Part shown: piece by piece, positions 4,075 to 61,050 of the stretch
How the letters are laid out: every line of letters starts with the position of its first letter
Numbering within the stretch: position 1 is the stretch's first letter
Sequence record: PZ476263.1
DNA length: 64,000 bases
Reading direction: 5' to 3' (one strand)
DNA from: a phage
The notes under the pieces: generated by a model
What the model saw: the letters and a program-made list of their open reading frames with translations, nothing else
Database searches by the model: none
Told to the model about the DNA's origin: nothing
Translations under genes and position numbers: made by a program

Positions 4075-5658
4075 ATGACGAATTCTGTAGTAGGTATGGC
4101 AGGTCACAATAATGGTGTATTTTATGGATACTCTCTTTATGACTTGGAGCAAAAAAGAAAGATAGCCTTTAAAGATTTAACTAAGGGTGACTCAGGGGCG
4201 AAGGGCGATAAGGGTGATCCTGGTCCAGAAGGTCCACAAGGTGATAAAGGAGATACCGGAGAGCAAGGCCCTGTAGGACCTCAAGGTCCTGCTGGTGCAC
4301 CAGGGCAACAAGGTGTGCCTGGTGAAAGAGGACCTCAAGGTCCCGAAGGCCCACAAGGCCCTCAAGGCCCAATTGGTCCCGAAGGACCAGTAGGACCAAT
4401 CGGCTCCCAAGGTCCCGAAGGTCCTAAAGGAGAGCAAGGTGAACAAGGCCCTTCTGGATCTCAAGGTCCTCAAGGATTAAAAGGGGATACAGGGGCACAA
4501 GGACCTCAAGGTCCCGTTGGACCCAGAGGAGAGACAGGTGCAACAGGACCTGTTGGACCTAAAGGGGACACAGGCCCAACAGGTCCAAAAGGAGAAACGG
4601 GTGAACAGGGACCCATTGGTCCGCAAGGACCTAAGGGTGATACAGGTCCCGTGGGTCCTGCAAGCTTAACCTTCAGAGGTTTCTATGAACCTCTTGAAGA
4701 ATACAACGAAAAGGATACAGTAGCTTATAATGGTTCTACTTATTTTGCGTTAAGAACCAGTACAGGAGCAACACCGGATATTTCTCCCGATGACTGGGCA
4801 TTACTTGCAGCTGAAGGTGCAGTTGGACCACAAGGACCTATGGGACCAGAGGGTCCGCAAGGTATCGCTGGTGCTCAAGGTCAGGAAGGCCCTATAGGAC
4901 CGCAAGGTGAACAGGGTCCGGTTGGACCTGTTGGCCCACAAGGCCCACAAGGTCCTGCGGGTCAGGAAGGAATAGAAGGCCCTCAGGGACCTCAAGGAGA
5001 AGAAGGCCCTATGGGACCTCAGGGACCACAAGGGATTGTAGGACCAACAGGTCCACAAGGCCCTCAAGGCCCCAAAGGGGACACTGGTGCAGTTGGACCA
5101 CAAGGTCCTCAAGGCCAACAAGGTCTTGATGGTCCACAAGGCCCTGCTGGTCCGCAAGGCGAAAGAGGTGTTACTGGACTAACCGGACCCCAAGGTCCCA
5201 AGGGTGATATCGGCCCTGTGGGTCCGGCTGGCCCTCAAGGTAAGGATGGTAATTCTTACACTATCTACAACTGGGGCAACATATCAACGGGCTATGGTGA
5301 GATGGTAATACCTGGTGTTACTAACACAGTATTCAGAGTGAGACGAGTAGGAACCACATTAGAATACAGTGTACTTAGTAAAGGTGGTGCGAATAGATAC
5401 CTTGACTTCCATACCATAATTCCAGCCCCCTCTACAGGGGGCGCTGTAATTATCCAATCAGGAAATACAACATTGACATCCTCCAGCTCTTTAAATGTTG
5501 TTACATCTGCACCTCCTGGTCTTGGTTTTCGACCAATATTCATCTCTTTAAAAGAGTGGGGAGATAGGGCAATAGTAACCATAGAGGTTTTCCACACAGG
5601 TAGAAGTGGAGATTCCAGTTACCCAATACATGTTCGTATGCTAACGACGAAGTATTGA
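4075..5658 (+). CDS. collagen-like fibre protein, paralog of 2420-4036
   Basis: Same N-terminal motif ('[22 protein letters not shown]') and Gly-X-Y architecture, different C-terminal domain. Confidence 0.65.
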
Positions 5659-5662
5659 CATG

Positions 5663-5691
5663 AAAGCCACCTTCGGGTGGCTTTATTTTTA
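5663..5691 (+). terminator. rho-independent terminator
   Basis: AAAGCCACC-TTCG-GGTGGCTTT hairpin followed by a T-run. Confidence 0.6.
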
Positions 5692-5748
5692 TACAAATGA
5701 CTTTCTTTTAATTTTGTGATAACATGTTTTAATACACTGGAGGATAAT

Positions 5749-6273
5749 ATGACTGATGCAGAAGTAGTACAGCTTGTTCGTAACTTTTTAGGCGGACTTA
5801 CTGAAGATGAAATGCCTGATAGCATGATTCTGTTTTTCTATAATAAATGGAAGGTTTGTTACGACTTAGAAAACAGGCCAGATCAATTTTCAATTATTCT
5901 GTACAATACCGTGCTTGATTGCGTACGTTGGCTTATTGTTCAGGAAGTTTCAAGTGGAGCTTCTGCAATTCGTGAACGATTCGAAAAAGTCGGTGATGAA
6001 ACCATATCCGTTAAATACGGGTCTAACTCTGGAAACTGGCAAGACTTCCTCGACTGGTTGACCGAACATCCTGAATATATTGATCCCTGCCTTAAGGATA
6101 ATGCCGTAGGTTCTGGGCTTGGTCTAATTATTATCGGTGGAACAAGAAAGGGGGAATTTGCAAGAGTTAAAAGAAATCGTGATTCTTTCAATGGCTTTAT
6201 GGAACCAGGTATTTTCCCTGCTGCGGGTACAAGAACTGGTGTCAAAAAGCGTAATCCTTGGATGGTCAACTAA
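5749..6273 (+). CDS. hypothetical structural protein, neck region
   Basis: ATG with SD GGAGGA; the ORF-track start at 5716 lacks an SD. Position between fibre and sheath genes. Confidence 0.4.
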   Translation: MTDAEVVQLVRNFLGGLTEDEMPDSMILFFYNKWKVCYDLENRPDQFSIILYNTVLDCVRWLIVQEVSSGASAIRERFEKVGDETISVKYGSNSGNWQDFLDWLTEHPEYIDPCLKDNAVGSGLGLIIIGGTRKGEFARVKRNRDSFNGFMEPGIFPAAGTRTGVKKRNPWMVN

Positions 6274-6335
6274 AGCTTTGACTTTGTTGCTTTTGCTCAT
6301 CTATTGTGGTAAAATAACTTTCATGGAGAATAACC

Positions 6336-6797
6336 GTGAAGAAAGTATCAACAATTGATTTTTCCGTCATGGACCACTATTACGACCAAATAACTGAATT
6401 GGAAGGCAAAGAAATAGAAGTAGGATTCTTTGACGAGCCTCACTATTCAGGTCTTAATATGGCAACTCTCGCCGCTATTCATGAAAACGGCTGGCACAAT
6501 CTCCCTGAACGTAATTTCATGCTTTCTACCGCTGTTCATTACAGGGGTGGACTCTATAAGAATCTTGCAAAACTTCATTCGGATATTCTCAAGCGTAAAC
6601 CTTATACTGTCGCTCTTAATAAGATCGGCAAGGATTATGCAGATAGTATCCGATTCACTATCGACCAAGGGACATTTACCAATAACCGAGTATCCTCGGA
6701 ATGGGCCAGTGTTAAGGGTTTCAGTGATGCAATGATTCACTACGGAGATCTTTACAGTTCAGCGAAGTTTAAGATTGTTGCACTAACGAAAGACTAA
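6336..6797 (+). CDS. hypothetical structural protein
   Basis: GTG start with SD GGAGA, 153 aa. Confidence 0.35.
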   Translation: MKKVSTIDFSVMDHYYDQITELEGKEIEVGFFDEPHYSGLNMATLAAIHENGWHNLPERNFMLSTAVHYRGGLYKNLAKLHSDILKRKPYTVALNKIGKDYADSIRFTIDQGTFTNNRVSSEWASVKGFSDAMIHYGDLYSSAKFKIVALTKD

Positions 6798-6806
6798 GGG
6801 GGCTGA

Positions 6807-7247
6807 ATGTCTCGCGGATATGCATTGCTGAGGGGACGTAACCAGCTTATTCCTCGTATAGAGGTTGAAGGTCGTCGCCGTACATATAAAAAAGTAGATT
6901 TAGATGACCCGTTCGACAATGGTGGTGTGGAAATTGAATACACACCAATAACCGCTGTAGAATGTGTCATCCAACCAATCAGGGGTAAGGCTTTACGTGA
7001 TCAAAACAACCAGCTAACTGCTGCGGGTGAAGAAGATTACGATTCTTACACTGTTTATTCAGAAACTGTGCTTTATCGAGCACAGGAAGGTACGGATAAA
7101 TTATCTGATCAGTTATGGCTTCCTAACTCTGTTGGGGAGCATAGTTGGTTTACCGTTATGAAAGCTGACCCTTATCCGAGTTCAGGTACGATGCGTTATC
7201 GCTACTATCTGATTGCTGTTCCTGTAGGAACGGAGGGTGGATTATAA
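6807..7247 (+). CDS. hypothetical protein, possible head-tail joining
   Basis: 146 aa, SD AGGGGG, stop overlaps next start. Function inferred from position only. Confidence 0.35.
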   Translation: MSRGYALLRGRNQLIPRIEVEGRRRTYKKVDLDDPFDNGGVEIEYTPITAVECVIQPIRGKALRDQNNQLTAAGEEDYDSYTVYSETVLYRAQEGTDKLSDQLWLPNSVGEHSWFTVMKADPYPSSGTMRYRYYLIAVPVGTEGGL

Positions 7248-7897
7248 TGGATCAACTTCCTAATGAGTTTACCAACTCCGACGAGATTATGGGTAATCTT
7301 ACAAAGACCATCGGTCGTCTATTGAAAGACGTAACCACCTATCGTGTGGTTGAAGCTAATGAAACAATCCCTAAAGTTGAGGGACCTTTCATTCTCGTAG
7401 ATCTTACAGATTTGACCCCTCTCGATTGGGAAACAAATAGTATTGTTGAAGATGGTGTTACCCACACTGTTCACAACTACACCGCAACATATAACCTTAC
7501 GGCATATCGTGGAAAACCTCACTGGGCGTTAACTCGATTCCATCAAGCGTTAAGTTTGGCTTGGATAAGAGATAAATACTTTCCAGTTGGTTCTCCTTTT
7601 GCCTATTCGTCATCTTCATCTATTGCAAGATTAAGAATACCTCTTAATGAACAATATTATGAAAACAGGGCGAGACTGCTTGTTACATTTAACGTTACGT
7701 TCGTTGAAAGTGACTTCGGTCAGTTTGAGGACATTGAAACTATCATCATTAGCACAACGACTGACCCTGAGGGGATCGAGAACGATGCGGTTGTTGATAT
7801 CAATTTTCCACCTGGAGGTGATGTCCCTATGTTGCCACCACAACCTGAACACGAATTAACTTACATCGACACTATCGTCACTGTCAATGAAAAGTAA
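7247..7897 (+). CDS. hypothetical structural protein
   Basis: 216 aa, start overlaps upstream stop (TAATG). Confidence 0.4.
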   Translation: MDQLPNEFTNSDEIMGNLTKTIGRLLKDVTTYRVVEANETIPKVEGPFILVDLTDLTPLDWETNSIVEDGVTHTVHNYTATYNLTAYRGKPHWALTRFHQALSLAWIRDKYFPVGSPFAYSSSSSIARLRIPLNEQYYENRARLLVTFNVTFVESDFGQFEDIETIIISTTTDPEGIENDAVVDINFPPGGDVPMLPPQPEHELTYIDTIVTVNEK

Positions 7898-8007: not shown

Positions 8008-9423
8008 ATGGCTTATGAAGATAAGGTAGTTGACGTCGAGGTAACTCTTGGTACTCAGCCTATTGATACCGTAGGGTTCGAAACCCCGATGTTCTTAGCA
8101 GTTCATAATAACTTCCCAGAACGTGTACGTTTTTATGGATCATTGGAAAGTCTGGTAGGTGATGGTTTTGCAGTTGGTTCAGCTGCTTATCAGTTTGCCT
8201 CGAACGTATTTGCAGGTTCTTTTGCTGCAAGTCTGGTAGGTATCGGACGTATGTCTCTGGCAAGTTCTCGTGTAGATTTTACCGGAACAGTCAATGAAGA
8301 ACGCGTCGTTGTAAATATTACCATCAATGGTACTATTAAAGCAGTAACTATTTCGCTGCAAGTTGGAAACACCCCAGGTCAAGTTGCTACCGCTCTTGCA
8401 ACTGGTATTAATGATGATGTAGACCTCGCAGGTCGAGTTGTTGCTACTGTAGAAAACAGCACTGTTGTAGTGATCCAGTCTGCTGAGAAAGTTAGCATCG
8501 GGAAAGGTGAGGGCACTTATAAGATCGTAAACACCTCTGCTGAAACTGTTGCTACTGTATTGCCTCAGGTTCTGGCTGAAAACCACAACTGGTACTTCCT
8601 GTCCCATGAACAGCGTTCTGATGCAGATATCGTTGCTGCTGCCGAATTTGCTCAGGCAAACTACAAACTGCACGTTTATAACTCCAGCGATTCTGATGCA
8701 CTGGCGGCTGCTAACCAAAGCACCTCTGTCTTTGACACGCTGAAATCTTTGGGTTATAACTCCCTCGGGACCTACGACAAAGATGCAGATGTGGAATATA
8801 CCGAAGGTTCTGTAATCGGTGCAATGGCTGCAAACGATCCTTCTTACGGTGACTCTATCCACCTGAAGACAATGCCTGGTATGGCTCCTTCTACCATCTC
8901 TGAAACTCAGCGTATGAACGCATGGGGACGTAACGCAAACATTTATCGTGCAATGTACGGTACTAACAGCTATATCGAAGGTCGTACTTCCAGCGGTCAG
9001 TATGTTGACGTTATTCGCTTCTCCCACTGGCTGAAGTTCCGTATGGAAGAATCTGTATTTGGTTACATGAAGCGTCGTTCTGATCAAGGTCAGTCCATGA
9101 AGATGAGTGATGAAGATCTTCCGGTTCTGCGTTCTATCCTGTTTAACAACCCAATCAACATCGGTATTCGTAACGGTGGTATCTTGACGGGTTATGACAG
9201 TGTGAACCGTGTAAGCTACGATCCGATTATCACCATCCCACGTCGTGCTGAAATCCCGACTAACGATTTAGCTAACCGTATCCTGCGTGATGTTAAAGTT
9301 GAAGTAGTTTACAACAACTCTCTGCATTACGTCAAAATCCGCGCTGCTGTGGTTCTTGATCGTCCGGCAAATACGACTCAGAGCACCCAAGCTCCTTTCT
9401 CTAACTCTTCTGTAGGGGTGTAA
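8008..9423 (+). CDS. putative tail sheath protein
   Basis: 471 aa, immediately upstream of a 160-aa tube-like gene and a tape measure gene. Called from gene order and size. Confidence 0.5.
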   Translation: MAYEDKVVDVEVTLGTQPIDTVGFETPMFLAVHNNFPERVRFYGSLESLVGDGFAVGSAAYQFASNVFAGSFAASLVGIGRMSLASSRVDFTGTVNEERVVVNITINGTIKAVTISLQVGNTPGQVATALATGINDDVDLAGRVVATVENSTVVVIQSAEKVSIGKGEGTYKIVNTSAETVATVLPQVLAENHNWYFLSHEQRSDADIVAAAEFAQANYKLHVYNSSDSDALAAANQSTSVFDTLKSLGYNSLGTYDKDADVEYTEGSVIGAMAANDPSYGDSIHLKTMPGMAPSTISETQRMNAWGRNANIYRAMYGTNSYIEGRTSSGQYVDVIRFSHWLKFRMEESVFGYMKRRSDQGQSMKMSDEDLPVLRSILFNNPINIGIRNGGILTGYDSVNRVSYDPIITIPRRAEIPTNDLANRILRDVKVEVVYNNSLHYVKIRAAVVLDRPANTTQSTQAPFSNSSVGV

Positions 9424-36852: not shown

Positions 36853-37755
36853 TTAGTGACAATCTCCCCAGCTGTATCCACACAAGTATTCCCCTGTGAT
36901 ATGCACTGGTGATTTCATCATCTTAGCTGCTTGTTCGACACAACGAACAACCATCTCTCCTACAGGGCAGTATGTAATAGTGAAGATACCATTTTCATCT
37001 GGATCACACTTAAACTTACCTTCCTTGACACAATGGCCTTCGAGGACCATCTTCTTAGCAAGACATGCCTCAACAAAAGCTTTTGCATCAGCTTCGTTAT
37101 CAAACTTCCATACCTTTTTGAACTTCTCCGGCACTTCAAGCTGGTACTCGTCATGGTAATAAATTGTACGACGTACACCTTGATCATACCAACCTTTTTT
37201 AACCAGCTGCCAATGCAACAGGATACCTACCAAGTCAAACATGGCAGCACCACCGTTCTGTTGGAAAGCGTTAAGCAATGAGTGTTTGGATCGGGTATAG
37301 ATCTTACGACCATCAAGACCATAAATGAATCGTTTACCGTTGGCTTCCCAAAACTTCTCAAGTGCTTCTTTACGACCTTTCAAACCTAAGTTGCTATCCC
37401 AAAATGCATCGATTACTGCTTGTGCTTTCTCCAATGAAATTCCAAGCATGGATGCAATCTTAGCTGCTTGAGCACCGTACATAATTCCATAGGTGATCCC
37501 CTTTCCTTCCCCACGAGATACTTTCTTACCCGCTGCCTTGGTATATGCTTCTGCGTTTCGACTATGAGCATCACCACTTTCCATAATTCGGAGGTAAGCA
37601 CCACCATCGAATTCATAACTTCCCCATGCAGCGACCATACCCTCTAAGTTAGAACCGTCTATACCTACCTGATACTTACCCTCGGGTACAGTGAAAAGGT
37701 CACGCATTTCTTTACCTAGAAGAACCTTAGGATCAGGCTTCGGCACGTTAGCACA
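36853..37755 (-). CDS. DNA polymerase (family A), 3' exon
   Basis: Contains motif A-like 'VGIDGSNLEGM', motif B-like 'ITYGIMYGAQAAKIA' and motif C 'YHDEYQLEV'. Frame stays open upstream of the GTG ('..ANVPKP', cf. PNLxNIP). Confidence 0.75.
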   Translation of the reverse strand, partial: CANVPKPDPKVLLGKEMRDLFTVPEGKYQVGIDGSNLEGMVAAWGSYEFDGGAYLRIMESGDAHSRNAEAYTKAAGKKVSRGEGKGITYGIMYGAQAAKIASMLGISLEKAQAVIDAFWDSNLGLKGRKEALEKFWEANGKRFIYGLDGRKIYTRSKHSLLNAFQQNGGAAMFDLVGILLHWQLVKKGWYDQGVRRTIYYHDEYQLEVPEKFKKVWKFDNEADAKAFVEACLAKKMVLEGHCVKEGKFKCDPDENGIFTITYCPVGEMVVRCVEQAAKMMKSPVHITGEYLCGYSWGDCH

Positions 37756-38959
37756 ATATGTTCGTTAAAGGTCGCAACTCTTTAACCGGGATCGTATACA
37801 CCTGAAGAAATATCTCTTCACACTTTCGAGTACGATTCCTGTTTCTTTTGCTACGTCACAGAAATCTTTCCCATCAAGTATCATTTTTGTTATCTCTAGT
37901 TCCAACTCTTCTTTAGTTTTGTTTCTTAACTTACTGACCCCAAAAGTTTTATCTTCGGCAAATTTACCGATAAAAAATCTAACTGTCGGTTTCTCTAAGT
38001 TTAGGATCTCACAAATCTTTAAAAGAGTCGCACCTTTCCACCATAAAGATCTTGCTTCTTCTGCAAGATGTTTCTTTTCTTCCACTTCAGAAACACATTT
38101 CCCCATGTCGAAAGTTTTTAAGTATCTTGCTGCAAAGTGCCTTTCTTGTCCAAGGTCCAGAGAGATTTTTGCATACGAATCACCTGCCAGATATCTTTTA
38201 TGGATGTGCAGATACATCTCTCCATAGTTATCAAAGCCGGATTGTTTTGCTCTATTATCTCTTTTTGCCATTGAACTTCTTTCAGATGCGATAGTTTTTA
38301 TGGACTCACCAAAAGAGTTTCCAATTGCATCTGGACTAGGACTCACCGCTGAAAAAGTATTATTAGTCATGTTATAGAATTCTGTATTGTTGGCTGCATC
38401 ATTCTCTAAAAGAACTTTTTCTTCGATTTCACGAAGGAGATCTCTTTTGTCTACAACTTCCAACACCTCAGCTACAAATCTATGACCACTTTTTAAATCC
38501 TTTTTCATATCTGGATTGGAAGAGGACCCAAGATAAGGTTTTCCACTCTTAATCGAGATTATTGTGGGGATTCCATCCACATCTATCACTTTGCATTCAC
38601 TTTTACTTCCGATATATTTGTTCGGGTATTCTTCTTTATCGATGTTTTTCAAGAGATAAACAATGTTCATGTATACGTCCTCCGCTGTATCTTTCAACAC
38701 AGTTCAGACTATATCTTTGACACACTAAAGGATAGCTGAACCAATCTACCCCTAATGTATCACAAACCACTTCGATTGTCTACGCTTACAATCTACGCCT
38801 TCCGGCTAGTCGTTGAACCTTCTACCTGTCTGGTAGCTTGGCTGCTGATTGCCCAATCCTTTAACTTTTTAAACCTTCGCTTTGTATTCCTACTCGCAGT
38901 GGTATAAAGGCTCTAAGGGGTTCCCAGCAATTCAATTTGTTTTATACTGAGGCAGCTTT
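37756..38959 (-). mobile_element. group I intron (with homing endonuclease ORF) in the DNA polymerase gene
   Basis: Minus-strand RNA carries the conserved elements in order: P-like AAUUGCUGGGAAC (38920-38931), Q-like AAUCAGCAGCC (38840-38850), R-like GUUCAACGACUAG (38806-38818), S-like AAGAUAUAGUC (38707-38717). Boundaries approximate. Confidence 0.7.
37765..38670 (-). CDS. GIY-YIG family homing endonuclease (intron-encoded)
   Basis: Starts 'MNIVYLLKNIDKEEYPNKYIGSK...' (IVY...YIGS, cf. I-TevI GIY...YVGS); SD GGAGGA; ORF lies 3' of the intron core. Confidence 0.6.
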   Translation of the reverse strand: MNIVYLLKNIDKEEYPNKYIGSKSECKVIDVDGIPTIISIKSGKPYLGSSSNPDMKKDLKSGHRFVAEVLEVVDKRDLLREIEEKVLLENDAANNTEFYNMTNNTFSAVSPSPDAIGNSFGESIKTIASERSSMAKRDNRAKQSGFDNYGEMYLHIHKRYLAGDSYAKISLDLGQERHFAARYLKTFDMGKCVSEVEEKKHLAEEARSLWWKGATLLKICEILNLEKPTVRFFIGKFAEDKTFGVSKLRNKTKEELELEITKMILDGKDFCDVAKETGIVLESVKRYFFRCIRSRLKSCDL

Positions 38960-40694
38960 AGTTTACCACAGTGTGTTTACGACGGCCTGTATTCGTTATT
39001 CCAGTATAACGTGCAGGTAATTTACCGTCCACCGCAAGTCGAGGATGGTTTAACCAACCTGTATCTACTTTATCCTCTTTCAAAGGATCAAGAACACTTC
39101 GACGGTTACGAAGAGATAGCCATTTTACAATCTGCTTTGCCATATCACCATCGACTCGCTCAAGGTTAGGACAAAGGCCCTGCTGATCCTTAAGCTGCGG
39201 TGATGTTGGTAATGCTCTTGCCTTCTTCCTGAAGAACTTATACATCTTCTCTTTATCTTGCCACTGCTTACCACTGATACCTAAACTTTTCAGAATCAGA
39301 TCGCGATATTCAGTCTGGTCAAGATCATCAATGTATTGACGAACAATGATATCGACTTCGTTATCGGGACGTTGTTTCTTAAACTGGTCCTTCGTCGCAT
39401 CTTTGGTTCGCCACAATGTTGGGACCCAACCCGCATCACGAATAAGGAATTTTTTAACGTCATCCTGATTACCAATACGCATCGGAATCATAATATCCGG
39501 CATCTTTTGATCTTTGATATCCATCAATGCACGGGCCATGTCTTCCGGTGGCAAAGGTACAAGATTTTCCTTTTTCACATTTTGAGAACGAATAAATTCA
39601 GCCATTTTGGATTCATCTTCTACACCATGCTCTACACAATACTTAATTGCAGCAGATGTGAGTGAACCATCGCCCTTAAACGGCTTACTTGGAGCGCCTT
39701 TAAATTCAAGAGCTTCCCAATTCACATTGTAACCTAACTTCTCTAACCATTTCCAGCCCGTACCAGAAAGAGATCCATCTCCTTTAAACGGCTTAGACGG
39801 GAAAGTAGGCTGTGCTGACTTGGACATCTCTTTCTTCGGCAGCTTTGGTTCAACCTCTTCTTCAATTTCTTTCATCATCGTATCAATACGATCACGCAAA
39901 GCTAAACCTTTCTCCACGTCGAAAGTAACACCCTGAATTTCTTGCTCAACCATCAAATAGTCGGTAAGCATACCTCGACGCAAGGCATTCTTCCAATTGA
40001 TGAGCTTCATCTTCTTCGGATCTTTGTCCGATTCATCTTTGTACATGAAACGTTTATCATCCGGCATAGAGTCACATGAAATTTCTTTCATGAGGGCATC
40101 CCATACCATTTCGTTGATGATTACGTCTTCAATAATACGATCACAATATTTCCACAAAGGGAGTCCACGCCAATCTTCGATTGCTACCTTCTGGTTTGCT
40201 ACTCGCATACCCCAAGCTTCAAGTCCATGAGGGCCTACAGGCTTCATTTTACCTGTAACTGGGTTCTTTACCATCTCGGGACAACCGCGCGGCAGAGGGC
40301 GATCTGGATACAGTGTACGGGACATTGAAAGGGTATCGAAGATGTTAACTTGTTTACCATTGATAGTCCCCATGCAACCAGGGTCTGCAAACATATCGTA
40401 TGTTGTTCCAAACATCTTTTTAAACAGCTGTAAGTCATAGCCGAAGATATTATGGATAGCAACAGCTTTTGGTTCAGTCACAAACCACTCATTAAGTTCT
40501 TCCAACTTACGGATCTTAAAGTTCTTACCTTTGGATTGAATAAACTTAACCGCTTGCTCGTAGCCTTCGCGGTTCGGATCGATAAAAATATTCCAATTGT
40601 CCTTTTTGTACTCTTTAAAAAGAACACAGTGAACAAGATCAACTTCTGTCAACAGGCCGTTAGCCTCTGCATCTCCAATAAACAAACCTTTCAT
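38958..40694 (-). CDS. DNA polymerase (family A), 5' exon with 3'-5' exonuclease domain
   Basis: N-terminus 'MKGLFIGDAEANGLL' matches the T7-type Exo I motif; ends '...YTGITNTGRR' (cf. TGR..PNL.NIP) before running into intron sequence. Confidence 0.75.
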   Translation of the reverse strand: MKGLFIGDAEANGLLTEVDLVHCVLFKEYKKDNWNIFIDPNREGYEQAVKFIQSKGKNFKIRKLEELNEWFVTEPKAVAIHNIFGYDLQLFKKMFGTTYDMFADPGCMGTINGKQVNIFDTLSMSRTLYPDRPLPRGCPEMVKNPVTGKMKPVGPHGLEAWGMRVANQKVAIEDWRGLPLWKYCDRIIEDVIINEMVWDALMKEISCDSMPDDKRFMYKDESDKDPKKMKLINWKNALRRGMLTDYLMVEQEIQGVTFDVEKGLALRDRIDTMMKEIEEEVEPKLPKKEMSKSAQPTFPSKPFKGDGSLSGTGWKWLEKLGYNVNWEALEFKGAPSKPFKGDGSLTSAAIKYCVEHGVEDESKMAEFIRSQNVKKENLVPLPPEDMARALMDIKDQKMPDIMIPMRIGNQDDVKKFLIRDAGWVPTLWRTKDATKDQFKKQRPDNEVDIIVRQYIDDLDQTEYRDLILKSLGISGKQWQDKEKMYKFFRKKARALPTSPQLKDQQGLCPNLERVDGDMAKQIVKWLSLRNRRSVLDPLKEDKVDTGWLNHPRLAVDGKLPARYTGITNTGRRKHTVVN

Positions 40695-56425: not shown

Positions 56426-56674
56426 TTATTCTCCTTGGTTAATGGTGGAAACTGAAATACGGGTTTTACCTGTGCTGTAAGATGTACTTACCTGTGCACT
56501 TGGACAATAGATTGCACGTAGTGCAGGACCTTGACCACGTACAACGTAAATCTCACAACCTTTTGCCACAAGCTCTGGAGGAAGAACATAGCTATCTGAT
56601 ACTTTTTCCGTTTGTCGGTCGTCACATGCACTAATCATAAACACTAATGCGATTACTGTCAACAACTTTTTCAT
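56426..56674 (-). CDS. putative lipoprotein
   Basis: Signal peptide with lipobox (MKKLLTVIALVFMISAC). Confidence 0.4.
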   Translation of the reverse strand: MKKLLTVIALVFMISACDDRQTEKVSDSYVLPPELVAKGCEIYVVRGQGPALRAIYCPSAQVSTSYSTGKTRISVSTINQGE

Positions 56675-57549: not shown

Positions 57550-57612
57550 TACTTGATTTTCATTTATTTTGTGATATTCTTCTCTCAACTTAAACGAGAA
57601 GGAGAGTAATAG

Positions 57613-58143
57613 ATGAAAAAAGATAAAGAGCTTGCAATTGCAATCAGTCTTGCAGCACATCACCACGTTGATCAAACAGATAAAGGAGGTAACGTATACA
57701 TCCTTCACCCTTTGGAAGTTATGAATACTCTAGCAAGTCGTGGTGATTATCATCTTATGGCTGCTGGTGTTCTTCACGACATTCTGGAGGATTGCCCTGT
57801 TACTGAACAAGATTTATTGGACGCAGGGATTAGTATAAAGACAGTAAGAACAGTGAAGAAAGTTACAAAGGTTAAGGGTCAGAAACCTCGGGACTATCTC
57901 TTAGGTATCTTGTATGACATTAACGCTTCAAAAGTTAAGTTGGCAGATCTTAAGCATAACTTGGATCTTCTACGTGTTCGTGAAATCGACGAGAAAGCAG
58001 TAAAAAGAATTAAAAAATATGTTGACATGTATACCGTAATAGAGCAATCTATTGCCTGGCAACAAAAGAACTTTGAAGATTCGGATTCTTACTATAATGC
58101 AAGAGATGAGTATCTGGAGGAGTTAATCAAAATACTGAAATAA
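57613..58143 (+). CDS. HD-domain protein of the RelA/SpoT hydrolase type (putative small alarmone hydrolase)
   Basis: 'LAAHHHVDQTDKGGNVYILHPLEV...AAGVLHDILEDCPV' matches the (p)ppGpp-hydrolase HD signature. Confidence 0.55.
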   Translation: MKKDKELAIAISLAAHHHVDQTDKGGNVYILHPLEVMNTLASRGDYHLMAAGVLHDILEDCPVTEQDLLDAGISIKTVRTVKKVTKVKGQKPRDYLLGILYDINASKVKLADLKHNLDLLRVREIDEKAVKRIKKYVDMYTVIEQSIAWQQKNFEDSDSYYNARDEYLEELIKILK

Positions 58144-58159
58144 ATTATTAAAAAAGTTA

Positions 58160-58188
58160 TTGACACGATAAACAAAACGCTCCATAAT
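58160..58188 (+). promoter_or_regulatory. sigma70-like promoter
   Basis: TTGACA-N17-CATAAT upstream of the AAA+ gene. Confidence 0.5.
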
Positions 58189-58220
58189 GAGCACATCAAC
58201 TAAACGAAAGGAGAAACAAA

Positions 58221-59450
58221 ATGCAAGCAACTTATCAACGTATGGACCAGAGCATGTTCAAAAAACGTATCAGCATTCGTCATATGGAAGCGCTTATTCG
58301 CTTGGGTGCATCGATTGGTAAAACTGTGTTCTTTTATGGCGGCGCTGGTCTGGGTAAATCCGAGAAAGTTCGTCAGATCGCAGACGCAATGTTCCCAAAT
58401 CGCGTAGGTAATAACCTCTGTGATGTTCGTCTGTCCGATAAAGAACCACAAGACGTTGCAGGTATTCCGATCCCTGTTACCTTGATTGATGAGAAAACTG
58501 GTAAAGAAGTTACTCGTACCGTTTATGCTGTACCAAACTTCTGGCCTACCGATCCTGATTGGCAGGGTATTGTTTTCCTTGATGAACTGCCTAACGCCCC
58601 GCTGGGTACTCAGCACTCGGCATATCAGGTAATTCTGGATCACGTTGCAGGTGAGCATAAATTCCCTGAAGGCTGCGTGTTTGTAGGTGCGGGTAACCGT
58701 GATACCGATGGTGCAGGTACTACCACAATGCCAGGTCCATTGGTTAACCGTATGATCTTGGCAGAAATTGATTATAACTTGGATGTTTGGATTGAAGATT
58801 ATGCGATTCCTTATCGTTTACATCCGAACGTAATTGGTTTCCTCAAGCAATTCCCTGAACATTTTTACACAGGGGATGTTGAGAACCGAAGCACTCAGGT
58901 ATTCGCTTCGCCTCGCCAATGGAAAACTGTTTCAGATATCCTTTATAAATATGATCAAGGAACTATGTCTGAATTTATCGCAGAGGTGGCGATTGCAGGT
59001 ACAGTTGGCGAAGGTCTTGAAGTTCAAGTATTGGCTTATCATATGCGTACTAAAGAACTTCCGGCGATTGAAGACATTTTCAGCGGTAAAACTAAAGAGC
59101 ATAAGTTGGATCGTAGTAAAAACGACCTGGTTTATGTATTGGCACAGACTGGTCTTCGTAAGATGGAAGATGAAGTCATGGATAATGAGATTAAGGATGA
59201 AGATTTCCTGGAGCGTTCAGGTAACTTCTTAACCTTTATGTACAATAACTATTACGATAACAACAAGGATACTCTGATTGCGATGATCTTGGGTGTATTC
59301 CGTGGTCCAAATGACAAGCCGTCCATTTTGACTGTTAACCCTCGTCGTCAGAAGATGATCCCGATGATGCGTAAGACTTGTCCGACCATCTCAGCTGTTG
59401 TTATGGAGTACATGACTCGTTATGGTCAACTGATTAAAGATTTTGAATAA
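58221..59450 (+). CDS. AAA+ ATPase, MoxR/CobS-like
   Basis: Walker A 'GGAGLGKSE', Walker B 'IVFLDELPNA'; followed by a VWA-domain gene. Confidence 0.55.
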   Translation: MQATYQRMDQSMFKKRISIRHMEALIRLGASIGKTVFFYGGAGLGKSEKVRQIADAMFPNRVGNNLCDVRLSDKEPQDVAGIPIPVTLIDEKTGKEVTRTVYAVPNFWPTDPDWQGIVFLDELPNAPLGTQHSAYQVILDHVAGEHKFPEGCVFVGAGNRDTDGAGTTTMPGPLVNRMILAEIDYNLDVWIEDYAIPYRLHPNVIGFLKQFPEHFYTGDVENRSTQVFASPRQWKTVSDILYKYDQGTMSEFIAEVAIAGTVGEGLEVQVLAYHMRTKELPAIEDIFSGKTKEHKLDRSKNDLVYVLAQTGLRKMEDEVMDNEIKDEDFLERSGNFLTFMYNNYYDNNKDTLIAMILGVFRGPNDKPSILTVNPRRQKMIPMMRKTCPTISAVVMEYMTRYGQLIKDFE

Positions 59451-59455
59451 AATCG

Positions 59456-59484
59456 TTGACAACAAAATCTAACTGACTTATTAT
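59456..59484 (+). promoter_or_regulatory. sigma70-like promoter
   Basis: TTGACA-N17-TATTAT. Confidence 0.5.
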
Positions 59485-59496
59485 AGGGGCATCTCG

Positions 59497-59517
59497 AAAG
59501 GGGTGTCCCTTTTTAAT
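59497..59517 (+). terminator. terminator-like hairpin between promoter and start codon
   Basis: AAAGGG-GTGT-CCCTTT followed by TTT, located between the -10 and the SD of the VWA gene. Confidence 0.35.
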
Positions 59518-59532
59518 ACCGGAGGATATGTA

Positions 59533-61050
59533 ATGATTGACCAAAAAGAAAAAGATATGATTCAACAACAAGACTCAGAAGCTGTTCGTATTATCGAGGC
59601 AGCAAGCCTTCAGTTGATGCGATTTAAACCGTTTTACGGAGTCATGCTGTCATCCATGCCCGTTAAGAACGGTACTTCATGGTGCTCCACAATGGCAACT
59701 GATGGTCGTAACCTCTATTATCATCCAGAATTTATCGCAGGGATGACAGATGAGCGTAAACAGTTAGTTCTTTCACGCCTGAAAGCTTCTGTGAGCGATC
59801 CTCAGCGCCTTAAAGAACTTACCCTGTACATCGAGTCATTTTATCGTCGTAAGACCGCCAGAGAGGTCGCTCTTATCCTTGAGCACGAATGTGACCACGT
59901 AGTTTCTGATCACGCCAGTCGTGGGAAAGGTTTTAATCACGAGCTTTACAATATTGCTGCGGATCATCGTATCAATACAACGGCAGTCCTGATCCATCAA
60001 AAAGGTGATGCATTAGGTAAGGCTTGGTTCCCTCAGGGTGAAAAGACAGTATTTGATCCGTTGCAAGAGTTTGGTTTTATGCATTGGGCTTATTGTGATT
60101 TCAAATTCAAAGATATGTATACAGAGCAGATCTATGAAATTTTGAACAAAGAAGAAAATGAGAAAGATAAATCTGATGGGAAAGGAAATGGATCGGGTAA
60201 CGGTGGGCCGGATGGCGATCTGAAAGGTGTTGACCAACACACAGATGAAAACGGTGATCCTGATGATGGTAATAATGATGTTGAAGATGCATTAGGTATC
60301 GACAAGAAAAGCAAACCAAAGCAGACAGCCGAAGAGCGTCAATATAACGATGGTGTAATGCGTCGAGCTATTGAGAATGCTGTTCAGGCGGCGGGTTCTG
60401 GTGCGCCGGAAGATGCTCGTCTCTTTGTTGAAGCTGACGGTAAGCCAAAGATTAACTACCTTCGTTTGCTTCGTCGTACTATTGAGCGTTTATTTAAACA
60501 GGATGTGTCTTATCGTCGTTTATCTCGTCGTAGTCACTCTTTGACTCGTACATTGCGTGGTGCTGGTTATATTAGTTCTCGACAAACTGTTGGTTTACCT
60601 TCTCACAACAAGCAGAAGACTATTCGTGCGGGTGTTTTCTTTGATGTGTCGGGTTCTTTTAACGATGAACTTCTTAAGCCAACAATGCGAGAGATCAGGG
60701 GTCTTTGTAATCTTTATGATGAGTTTGAAGTTACAATGGCCTGTTGGTCAACTAAGGTTGGTAACATAGAAACTTACACCAAAAAGAATATTAAGGACAT
60801 GGCTAACTATAAGATTAAGACTACTTTTGGTACGGACGTATCTTGTGTCTTTGAAGAGCTAGATAAGATGGAAAATCCTATGGATCAGATCATTATCTAT
60901 ACGGATGGTTACTTCTCTGATGTTTCTCAAACAAAAGATTGGGCCAAAAAGTATGGTAAGAATGTTCTTTGGATCATCCTTGGTCGTGGAGGAAATTCTT
61001 TCAAACCTCCATTCGGCAACGCGATTGATTTTGATAAGTACGTTAAGTAA
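59533..61050 (+). CDS. VWA-domain protein with N-terminal HExxH motif
   Basis: ATG with SD GGAGGA. 'LEHECDHVV' (HExxH), acidic Gly/Asp-rich linker, MIDAS-like 'FFDVSGSF'. Confidence 0.55.
   Translation: MIDQKEKDMIQQQDSEAVRIIEAASLQLMRFKPFYGVMLSSMPVKNGTSWCSTMATDGRNLYYHPEFIAGMTDERKQLVLSRLKASVSDPQRLKELTLYIESFYRRKTAREVALILEHECDHVVSDHASRGKGFNHELYNIAADHRINTTAVLIHQKGDALGKAWFPQGEKTVFDPLQEFGFMHWAYCDFKFKDMYTEQIYEILNKEENEKDKSDGKGNGSGNGGPDGDLKGVDQHTDENGDPDDGNNDVEDALGIDKKSKPKQTAEERQYNDGVMRRAIENAVQAAGSGAPEDARLFVEADGKPKINYLRLLRRTIERLFKQDVSYRRLSRRSHSLTRTLRGAGYISSRQTVGLPSHNKQKTIRAGVFFDVSGSFNDELLKPTMREIRGLCNLYDEFEVTMACWSTKVGNIETYTKKNIKDMANYKIKTTFGTDVSCVFEELDKMENPMDQIIIYTDGYFSDVSQTKDWAKKYGKNVLWIILGRGGNSFKPPFGNAIDFDKYVK

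Follow-up and report, generated by a model that had tools for sequence, protein, structure and literature searches.

Adjoining genes for a small alarmone hydrolase and an N4 gp24/gp25-type MoxR-VWA couple in an rV5-like phage: probably two independent functions

The phage sequence record PZ476263.1 was analysed as a single stretch of 64,000 nucleotides, hereafter the window, with a focus on three genes at positions 57613-61050 that encode an HD-domain hydrolase, an AAA+ ATPase and a protein carrying a von Willebrand factor A (VWA) domain. A first-pass annotation made from the sequence had described them as three consecutive plus-strand genes, and open reading frames are present at the coordinates it gave. 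Genes in the window lie on the plus strand from ~1 to 26 kb, where the structural genes are located, on the minus strand from ~26 to 57.5 kb, and on the plus strand again from 57.6 kb. The HD-AAA+-VWA stretch begins exactly where the minus-strand and plus-strand blocks diverge, at ~57.6 kb. The genes, their domains and the associated signals are listed below, with promoters scored over the 12 positions of a TTGACA-N16-18-TATAAT model (scan threshold 9/12).

57553..57580, plus strand: candidate promoter of the HD gene, moderate sigma-70-like, TTGATT-N16-TATTCT with a TG upstream of the -10 element, 8/12
57613..58143, plus strand: HD gene, a putative single-domain small alarmone hydrolase (SAH) of the Aph1/PbcSpo type, 176 amino acids, assigned with Pfam, PDB and NCBIfam
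58160..58188, plus strand: promoter of the AAA+ gene, near-consensus sigma-70, TTGACA-17-CATAAT, 11/12
58221..59450, plus strand: AAA+ gene, MoxR/midasin/dynein clade, 409 amino acids, homologue of N4 gp24, assigned by profile and fold
59456..59484, plus strand: promoter of the VWA gene, near-consensus sigma-70, TTGACA-17-TATTAT, 11/12
59485..59510, plus strand: terminator-like hairpin immediately behind the -10 of the VWA promoter, 11 pairs, GC-rich, with a GAAA loop and then a U-run
59533..61050, plus strand: VWA gene, encoding a zincin-like DUF2201_N domain, a linker and a VWA domain with a metal-ion-dependent adhesion site (MIDAS), 505 amino acids, homologue of N4 gp25, assigned by Pfam, motifs and fold
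59884..59898, plus strand: HExxH motif of the VWA protein
60175..60261, plus strand: linker of the VWA protein
60643..60657, plus strand: DxSxS motif of the VWA protein
~60598..61047, plus strand: VWA domain

Megablast searches with the region of interest and the first 25 kb of the window return only matches of ~78-81% identity, to the E. coli phages W70, A73, A5-4, A7_1, UPEC06 and LTH01. The genus Septuagintavirus comprises W70, A73, A5-4 and A7_1 (PMC11370258), and UPEC06 is classified under Vequintavirinae in its database record. Judged by matches at this level to W70/A73/A5-4/A7_1-type phages, the window phage is a new Septuagintavirus relative, an rV5-like member of the Vequintavirinae. 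A 141-kb metagenomic contig encodes an AAA+ protein 99% identical to that of the window.

The HD protein matches Pfam HD_4 (PF13328) with 36.9 bits, above the cut-off of 27.2 (E 3.9e-9). In a sequence search of the PDB its best match is Aph1 (7smg, 9.7e-18), followed by Rel/SpoT hydrolase domains with E-values from 1e-10 to 1e-7. The NCBIfam spoT_relA match (1.2e-15) is confined to positions 1-144 of a 687-position model, and the protein is a hydrolase domain alone, free of synthetase and regulatory domains. The metal-binding H...HD...D residues (H32, H55-D56 and D112) and the catalytic ED pair (E59-D60) are present, align to the Rel and Aph1 motifs, and are invariant among 11 HD homologues; a word-indexed homologue search gave 10 HD relatives only. 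The catalytic His and Asp residues, whose loss on alignment would have spoken against the annotated RelA/SpoT hydrolase signature, are therefore in place, and that assignment is sound.

Aph1, a (p)ppApp hydrolase from a Bacteroides caccae prophage (PDB 7SMG), is the nearest solved relative and, like the window protein, consists of a single HD domain. In Aph1, D24 and R119 give specificity for (p)ppApp and Y134 contacts the pyrophosphate (PMC10083569). These three residues correspond to D23, R121 and Y136 of the window protein in a pairwise HMMER alignment to 7smg, a correspondence by alignment only; the specificity residues are thus kept, and conservation of D23 and R121 among phage HD homologues is 90% or higher. 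A preference of the window protein for adenosine 3'-pyrophosphates would fit both (p)ppApp and modified tRNA A76 as substrates. The two proteins differ in setting. Aph1 belongs to a temperate phage, in which it acts as the immunity protein for a neighbouring (p)ppApp synthetase toxin fused to MuF, whereas the window phage is a virulent myophage whose early HD gene stands alone; the homologous loci examined have no synthetase gene.

Among phage proteins, the HD protein is 51% identical to a UPEC06 protein annotated as 'GTP pyrophosphokinase' and 48% identical over 136 residues to gp220 of phage PVP-SE1, the sole match to it in the PVP-SE1 genome. The PVP-SE1 SAH (gp220) comes from the same phage subfamily, has the same catalytic residues and is likewise encoded by an early gene immediately right of a bidirectional promoter hub. 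It lacks the 35-residue C-terminal extension that the window protein shares with UPEC06 and CR3-type proteins. According to Jimmy et al. (PMC7229694), the PVP-SE1 SAH, of the PbcSpo subfamily, neutralised all the toxic small alarmone synthetases (toxSAS) tested, namely CapRel, PhRel, PhRel2, FaRel and FaRel2, and needed no other phage protein to do so in E. coli. Kurata et al. (bioRxiv 10.1101/2021.04.30.441581) showed that SAHs are able to restore tRNA pyrophosphorylated by toxSAS. The role against alarmone-based abortive infection that had been suggested for the HD protein hence has a direct experimental precedent in a syntenic relative. A longer architecture occurs in a 142,349-bp Pectobacterium phage phiTE-type contig, where a protein of 413 residues (positions 6247-7485) ends in an Aph1-like HD domain of 175 residues; for its Cys/His-rich N-terminal ~235 residues, sequence searches of Pfam and the PDB gave no match. 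Longer fused HD forms are likewise modelled by PHROGs 990 and 30929.

The HD protein could instead act chiefly on host (p)ppGpp, blocking the stringent response rather than countering toxSAS or (p)ppApp. Homology to the Rel/SpoT hydrolase domains is in keeping with such a role, and phage SAHs are commonly annotated or discussed in these terms (PMC12846349, PMC7824862). We nevertheless consider it quite unlikely, given that the (p)ppApp-specific Aph1 matches at 1e-17 against 1e-10 for Rel, that D23 and R121 are the residues conferring (p)ppApp specificity in Aph1, and that the PVP-SE1 orthologue neutralises toxSAS, tRNA-modifying ones included (PMC7229694).

The AAA+ protein retains a Walker A motif (GGAGLGKS, G40-S47) and a Walker B motif (D121-E122), both invariant. 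Across 23 AAA+ sequences, G43, G45, K46, S47, D121, E122, N159, R177 and R232 are invariant, a set that includes the sensor-1 asparagine and the conserved arginines. A C-terminal helical extension spans residues ~200 to 409. No Pfam or NCBIfam family, AAA_5, AAA_3 and MoxR included, matches the protein at E up to 0.01, and a Desulfovibrio homologue matches AAA_5 and AAA_3 at 3e-4, under their cut-offs. A single-sequence search of the PDB returned nothing, and relatives of known structure emerged only with a family profile and a structure model. The family profile finds the AAA domains of midasin at 1.3e-20, and the closest solved folds to the structure model are CbbQ and NorQ rather than clamp loaders, terminases or members of other clades. 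Together, these comparisons place the protein, by its modelled fold, in the MoxR clade. The AAA+ ATPase call stands, and neither a clamp loader nor a packaging ATPase, the alternatives that would have undone it, describes the protein.

The third open reading frame opens at a GTG at 59503, and a GGAGG at 59521-59525 precedes an ATG at 59533. The ATG is the likely start, and VWA-protein homologues are similar in length to the product that it would begin. The protein matches Pfam PF13203 (DUF2201_N) with 86.7 bits against a cut-off of 23.2. Among 25 homologues, with identity down to 21%, the HExxH residues H118, E119 and H122 never vary, nor do the MIDAS residues D371-x-S373-x-S375, T434 and D458; H127 has a conservation of at least 90%. 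The predicted structure of the C-terminal domain is a VWA fold with a complete MIDAS, its solved-fold matches include NorD, and linker residues 215-243 are predicted to be disordered (predicted local distance difference test score, pLDDT, <50). All three features attributed to this protein, the HExxH motif, the disordered linker and the MIDAS-type VWA domain, are thereby confirmed, and the VWA motif is conserved in homologues.

Database labels for this family diverge from the picture above. The label 'HNH endonuclease', carried by PHROG 1314 and by N4 gp25 in RefSeq NC_008720 (the N4 locus, 4165-5307, designated L083 here), is contradicted by the Pfam match, the invariant MIDAS and the predicted fold. 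A5-4 and A7_1 have an annotated HNH homing endonuclease inside the VWA-protein region. CobS/CobT cobaltochelatase is a frequent label of phage homologues, and neither protein of the pair matches these families in Pfam or NCBIfam. NCBIfam gives no match of any kind for the AAA+ or VWA protein, PADLOC gives no meaningful match for any of the three proteins, and no functional study of DUF2201 turned up in a literature search.

The AAA+ and VWA proteins are homologous to gp24 and gp25 of phage N4 (hhalign, 4.4e-39 and 1.8e-45). The N4-like phages share a core set of 14 genes that includes these two, which are transcribed as middle genes of unknown function (PMC4193335). As in the window, the N4 genes are adjacent, in the same order and of early/middle class. 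With 352 and 380 residues, gp24 and gp25 are smaller than the window proteins; gp25 lacks a ~75-residue insert before the HExxH motif and most of the acidic linker, and no HD gene occurs in the 10 kb examined around the N4 pair. In a tblastn search the ATPase is found in 844 of 50,697 phage records, among them a cyanophage as well as N4-like, rV5-like and RaK2-type jumbo phages. Side-by-side AAA+ and VWA genes occur at ~60 environmental viral loci and at 26 loci of Desulfovibrionaceae. In the window and in most of ~90 related loci, the VWA gene comes immediately 3' of the AAA+ gene. In Desulfovibrionaceae the genes abut or overlap, and the D. falkowii pair sits among ordinary cellular genes. 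The bacterial homologue search used one narrow AAA+-alignment pattern and recovered almost solely Desulfovibrionaceae, so bacterial diversity is under-sampled.

Compared with CbbQ-CbbO, NorQ-NorD, RavA-ViaA and midasin, the window ATPase has an extra C-terminal helical domain of ~190 residues, and the window VWA partner has a zincin-like domain, which is absent from CbbO, NorD and ViaA. The missing Pfam AAA_5/AAA_3 match at E below 0.01 further separates the ATPase from cellular MoxR-VWA systems. One proposal that follows the cellular systems is that the pair is a metal- or cofactor-insertion chaperone, comparable to CobS/CobT, BchI/BchD, NorQ/NorD or CoxD/CoxE, which would activate a phage or host metalloenzyme such as ribonucleotide reductase, with the HExxH motif binding metal and cleaving no peptide. 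The resemblance of the two folds to CbbQ, NorQ and NorD points this way, as do the CobS or MoxR annotations of some phage homologues and a CobW-type metallochaperone GTPase gene 5 kb from a Desulfovibrio homologue pair. Even so, this seems very unlikely: the CobS, CobT and chelatase families of Pfam and NCBIfam are unmatched, the invariant HExxH(x4)H motif is of the zincin type, and N4-like phages show no obvious metalloenzyme client in the neighbourhood examined.

An architectural parallel comes from group 2.2 jumbo phages, in which Iyer et al. 2021 (PMC7824862) describe a MoxR protein with a vWA protein whose N-terminal domain is a metallopeptidase. They proposed a role in virion assembly, drawing on the archaeal virus ATV, in which a MoxR-VWA system serves tail development. 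On that model the window pair would be a chaperone and protease that folds and processes structural proteins, with the HD protein unrelated to it, and the presence of a second set of virion-protein genes near the gp24/gp25 homologues of N4-like roseophages (PMC4193335) would agree. The window pair differs in lying in a 140-kb non-jumbo phage and in an early-promoter context, in the early/middle region behind near-consensus sigma-70 promoters and far from the structural block at ~1-26 kb. Moreover, the N4 gp24/gp25 transcripts are middle rather than late (PMC4193335), and the cellular homologues of Desulfovibrio lie among non-phage genes. We therefore regard an assembly role as unlikely.

Several observations inform how the three genes may be expressed. 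The window holds 17 sigma-70-like sites scoring at least 11/12, compared with 2.6 ± 1.7 in shuffled sequences, and all 17 point in the same direction as the local genes. Because of this enrichment and co-orientation, the promoter sites before the AAA+ and VWA genes are unlikely to be chance occurrences. All but one of the strong sites (16/17) fall within 30000-62000, the sole site in the structural block being at 8732-8760, a distribution that marks 30000-62000 as the early/middle region dependent on host RNA polymerase. The TTGAC of the AAA+ promoter is kept in UPEC06 and CR3, and the TTGACA of the VWA promoter is invariant across the four phages compared. The HD-gene candidate is weaker, being under the scan threshold and not near-consensus; at its position UPEC06 has TTGATT-N16-TATACT (9/12), so that the position is conserved. 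Hence the earlier statement that each gene stands behind a near-consensus promoter is accurate for the AAA+ and VWA genes (11/12 each) and fails for the HD gene (8/12).

The hairpin that follows the VWA promoter folds with a free energy of -19.1 kcal/mol (z -3.9). The combination of promoter and hairpin before the VWA gene is kept in UPEC06, CR3 and a further related locus (L004), with differing stem sequences. Transcripts of the AAA+ gene would probably stop at this hairpin, and those initiated at the 59456-59484 promoter would start within its stem. The hairpin may thus pass promoter-initiated transcripts while terminating upstream ones, an arrangement in which the AAA+ and VWA partners would be expressed as separate transcription units.

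The linkage of the HD gene to the pair, which the first-pass annotation had singled out as unusual, was assessed in 81 AAA+-centred loci, counting HD genes within 8 kb, and in 80 HD-centred viral loci, counting AAA+ or VWA genes within 10 kb. The VWA gene is adjacent in most of the AAA+-centred loci. An HD gene is present in 18 of the 81, all of them Vequintavirinae-like, compared with 0/60 outside the Vequintavirinae and 0/26 of the Desulfovibrionaceae pair loci. Within the rV5 type itself, three loci (L007, L012 and L020) have the pair and no HD gene. Conversely, 69 of the 80 HD-centred loci lack both AAA+ and VWA genes; nine of the 11 that have them are Vequintavirinae-like. The host genera of HD-bearing and AAA+-bearing phages show little overlap. 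Since every HD-positive AAA+ locus is Vequintavirinae-like, the three genes do not co-occur across independent lineages in this set.

Gene order is also loose. In Septuagintavirus, phiTE and CR3 types, AAA+-VWA comes after the HD gene with zero to two genes between; in PVP-SE1, 4MG and Hena1 types, one to four small genes separate HD from AAA+, and the VWA gene lies 4-6 kb off on the opposite strand. PVP-SE1 itself has four genes between HD and AAA+, with the VWA gene on the other strand. Extra small genes lie between HD and AAA+ in UPEC06 (5424-5957 of its locus, L001) and PVP-SE1 (6420-7967 of L082), and the window has none. With one to four such genes in relatives, the HD-AAA+ junction is a hotspot at which genes come and go. 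A bidirectional promoter region lies between the MoxR and VWA genes of rV5 and PVP-SE1 (PMC3606486), as is also seen at the PVP-SE1 locus here. The association is best read as a conserved placement of several early genes around this promoter hub in one lineage.

We also weighed the suggestion that the linkage marks a single module for host physiology or anti-defence. The MoxR-VWA couple would then work with the HD protein, for example by extracting or degrading a toxSAS or RelA-type enzyme whose product the HD protein clears. The genes are consecutive, co-oriented and at the start of the rightward early unit, as such a module would predict. The phyletic patterns are largely independent: the pair occurs without HD in N4-like phages, the ~60 environmental loci, Desulfovibrionaceae and rV5-type phages, and most HD loci are without the pair. 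Order is not strictly kept, as the inverted VWA gene of PVP-SE1 illustrates, and in the window the genes have separate promoters, with the terminator-like hairpin between AAA+ and VWA. Furthermore, the PVP-SE1 SAH neutralised toxSAS in E. coli by itself (PMC7229694). On these counts the inference of a functional module from linkage does not hold up, and we judge the integrated arrangement highly improbable. A looser variant, in which the pair would not serve virion assembly but would be an early 'grip, pull and cut' machine against a host complex such as a defence or stress factor, kept beside HD in Vequintavirinae-like phages as one counter-defence programme run from the bidirectional hub, strikes us as distinctly unlikely.

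We consider it likely that the locus combines two independent functions, an Aph1/PbcSpo-type hydrolase and an N4 gp24/gp25-type MoxR-VWA couple, which are neighbours by lineage-specific synteny. The basis of this reading is the domain identities, the catalytic residues, the N4 homology and the neighbourhood statistics computed here. Two unrelated early or middle functions would adjoin at a hub of bidirectional early promoters in this Vequintavirinae phage, the HD gene lying beside the pair because of synteny in the lineage and not because either needs the other. The HD protein, produced early, would be a Mn2+-dependent adenosine/guanosine 3'-pyrophosphohydrolase. It would strip the 3'-pyrophosphate that toxSAS put on ATP or ADP, giving (p)ppApp, or on the CCA end of tRNA. 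Such removal would forestall abortive infection of the toxSAS type, and alarmone signalling in the host may be dampened as well; the anti-toxSAS activity is suggested by analogy with the relative for which the literature reports it. The AAA+ and zincin-VWA proteins would form a couple in which a hexameric MoxR-class ATPase drives the MIDAS adaptor. The adaptor would grip an acidic residue of a target protein, and its N-terminal HExxH domain would probably cleave either this target or the adaptor. In this scheme the complex, the peptidase activity and the target are all putative.

Several points weigh against the two-function reading or parts of it. The HD gene lies a few kilobases upstream of AAA+ throughout several diverged Vequintavirinae genera, with AAA+ identity down to 37%, a closeness that would also suit an integrated module. 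Outside the Vequintavirinae-like phages, HD and AAA+ co-localise in two loci only, L106 and L152, which complete the 11 HD-centred loci with pair genes; both carry HD 2-5 kb upstream of AAA+ on the same strand, with an AAA+ of a different clade. Taken together, the conserved proximity and these two loci leave a small possibility of some recurrent association between HD and the pair. The equation of gp220 with the PVP-SE1 SAH of PMC7229694 is likewise presumptive, drawn from gp220 being the sole HD_4 match in that genome. For the N-terminal metallopeptidase-like domain of the VWA protein, no solved structural relative was detected, so proteolysis is suggested only by the HExxH motif and the Pfam name. 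More generally, the activities and contacts of all three proteins are predicted here from their genes. L106 (1905-2405 and 7695-11254) and L152 are environmental viral contigs whose AAA+ proteins are 64% identical to a large HD-less clade, the L022 group.

Other features of the window lie outside the three-gene stretch. A group I intron (Rfam RF00028, 73.8 bits, E 7e-17) at 38685-39052 on the minus strand, with flanks spanning 36853-40694, appears to split a family-A DNA-polymerase-like gene into the open reading frames 38958-40694 and 36853-37746. A 311-residue open reading frame at 37765-38700, between these two, could be an intron-encoded endonuclease. Closer to the divergence point, an 82-residue protein encoded at 56426-56674 on the minus strand carries a signal of the lipoprotein type, MKKLLTVIALVFMISAC, and weakly matches the Cor superinfection-exclusion proteins of PHROGs (3.7e-4). 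Its gene lies behind a near-consensus promoter at 56662-56634.

The three proteins are members of already known protein kinds and do not constitute a new three-part machine. The pair family is very widespread, is part of the N4-like core set and has cellular homologues; the early promoters, the conserved promoter-hairpin arrangement and the independence from HD provide useful constraints on its role without revealing a new system. The HD gene adds a further member to the phage small alarmone hydrolases, a class with demonstrated activity against toxSAS toxins that bears on how phages escape immunity of the CapRel/FaRel type. From its Aph1-like signature, the Vequintavirinae enzymes would seem to be tuned to adenosine 3'-pyrophosphates, both (p)ppApp and the modified A76 of tRNA.

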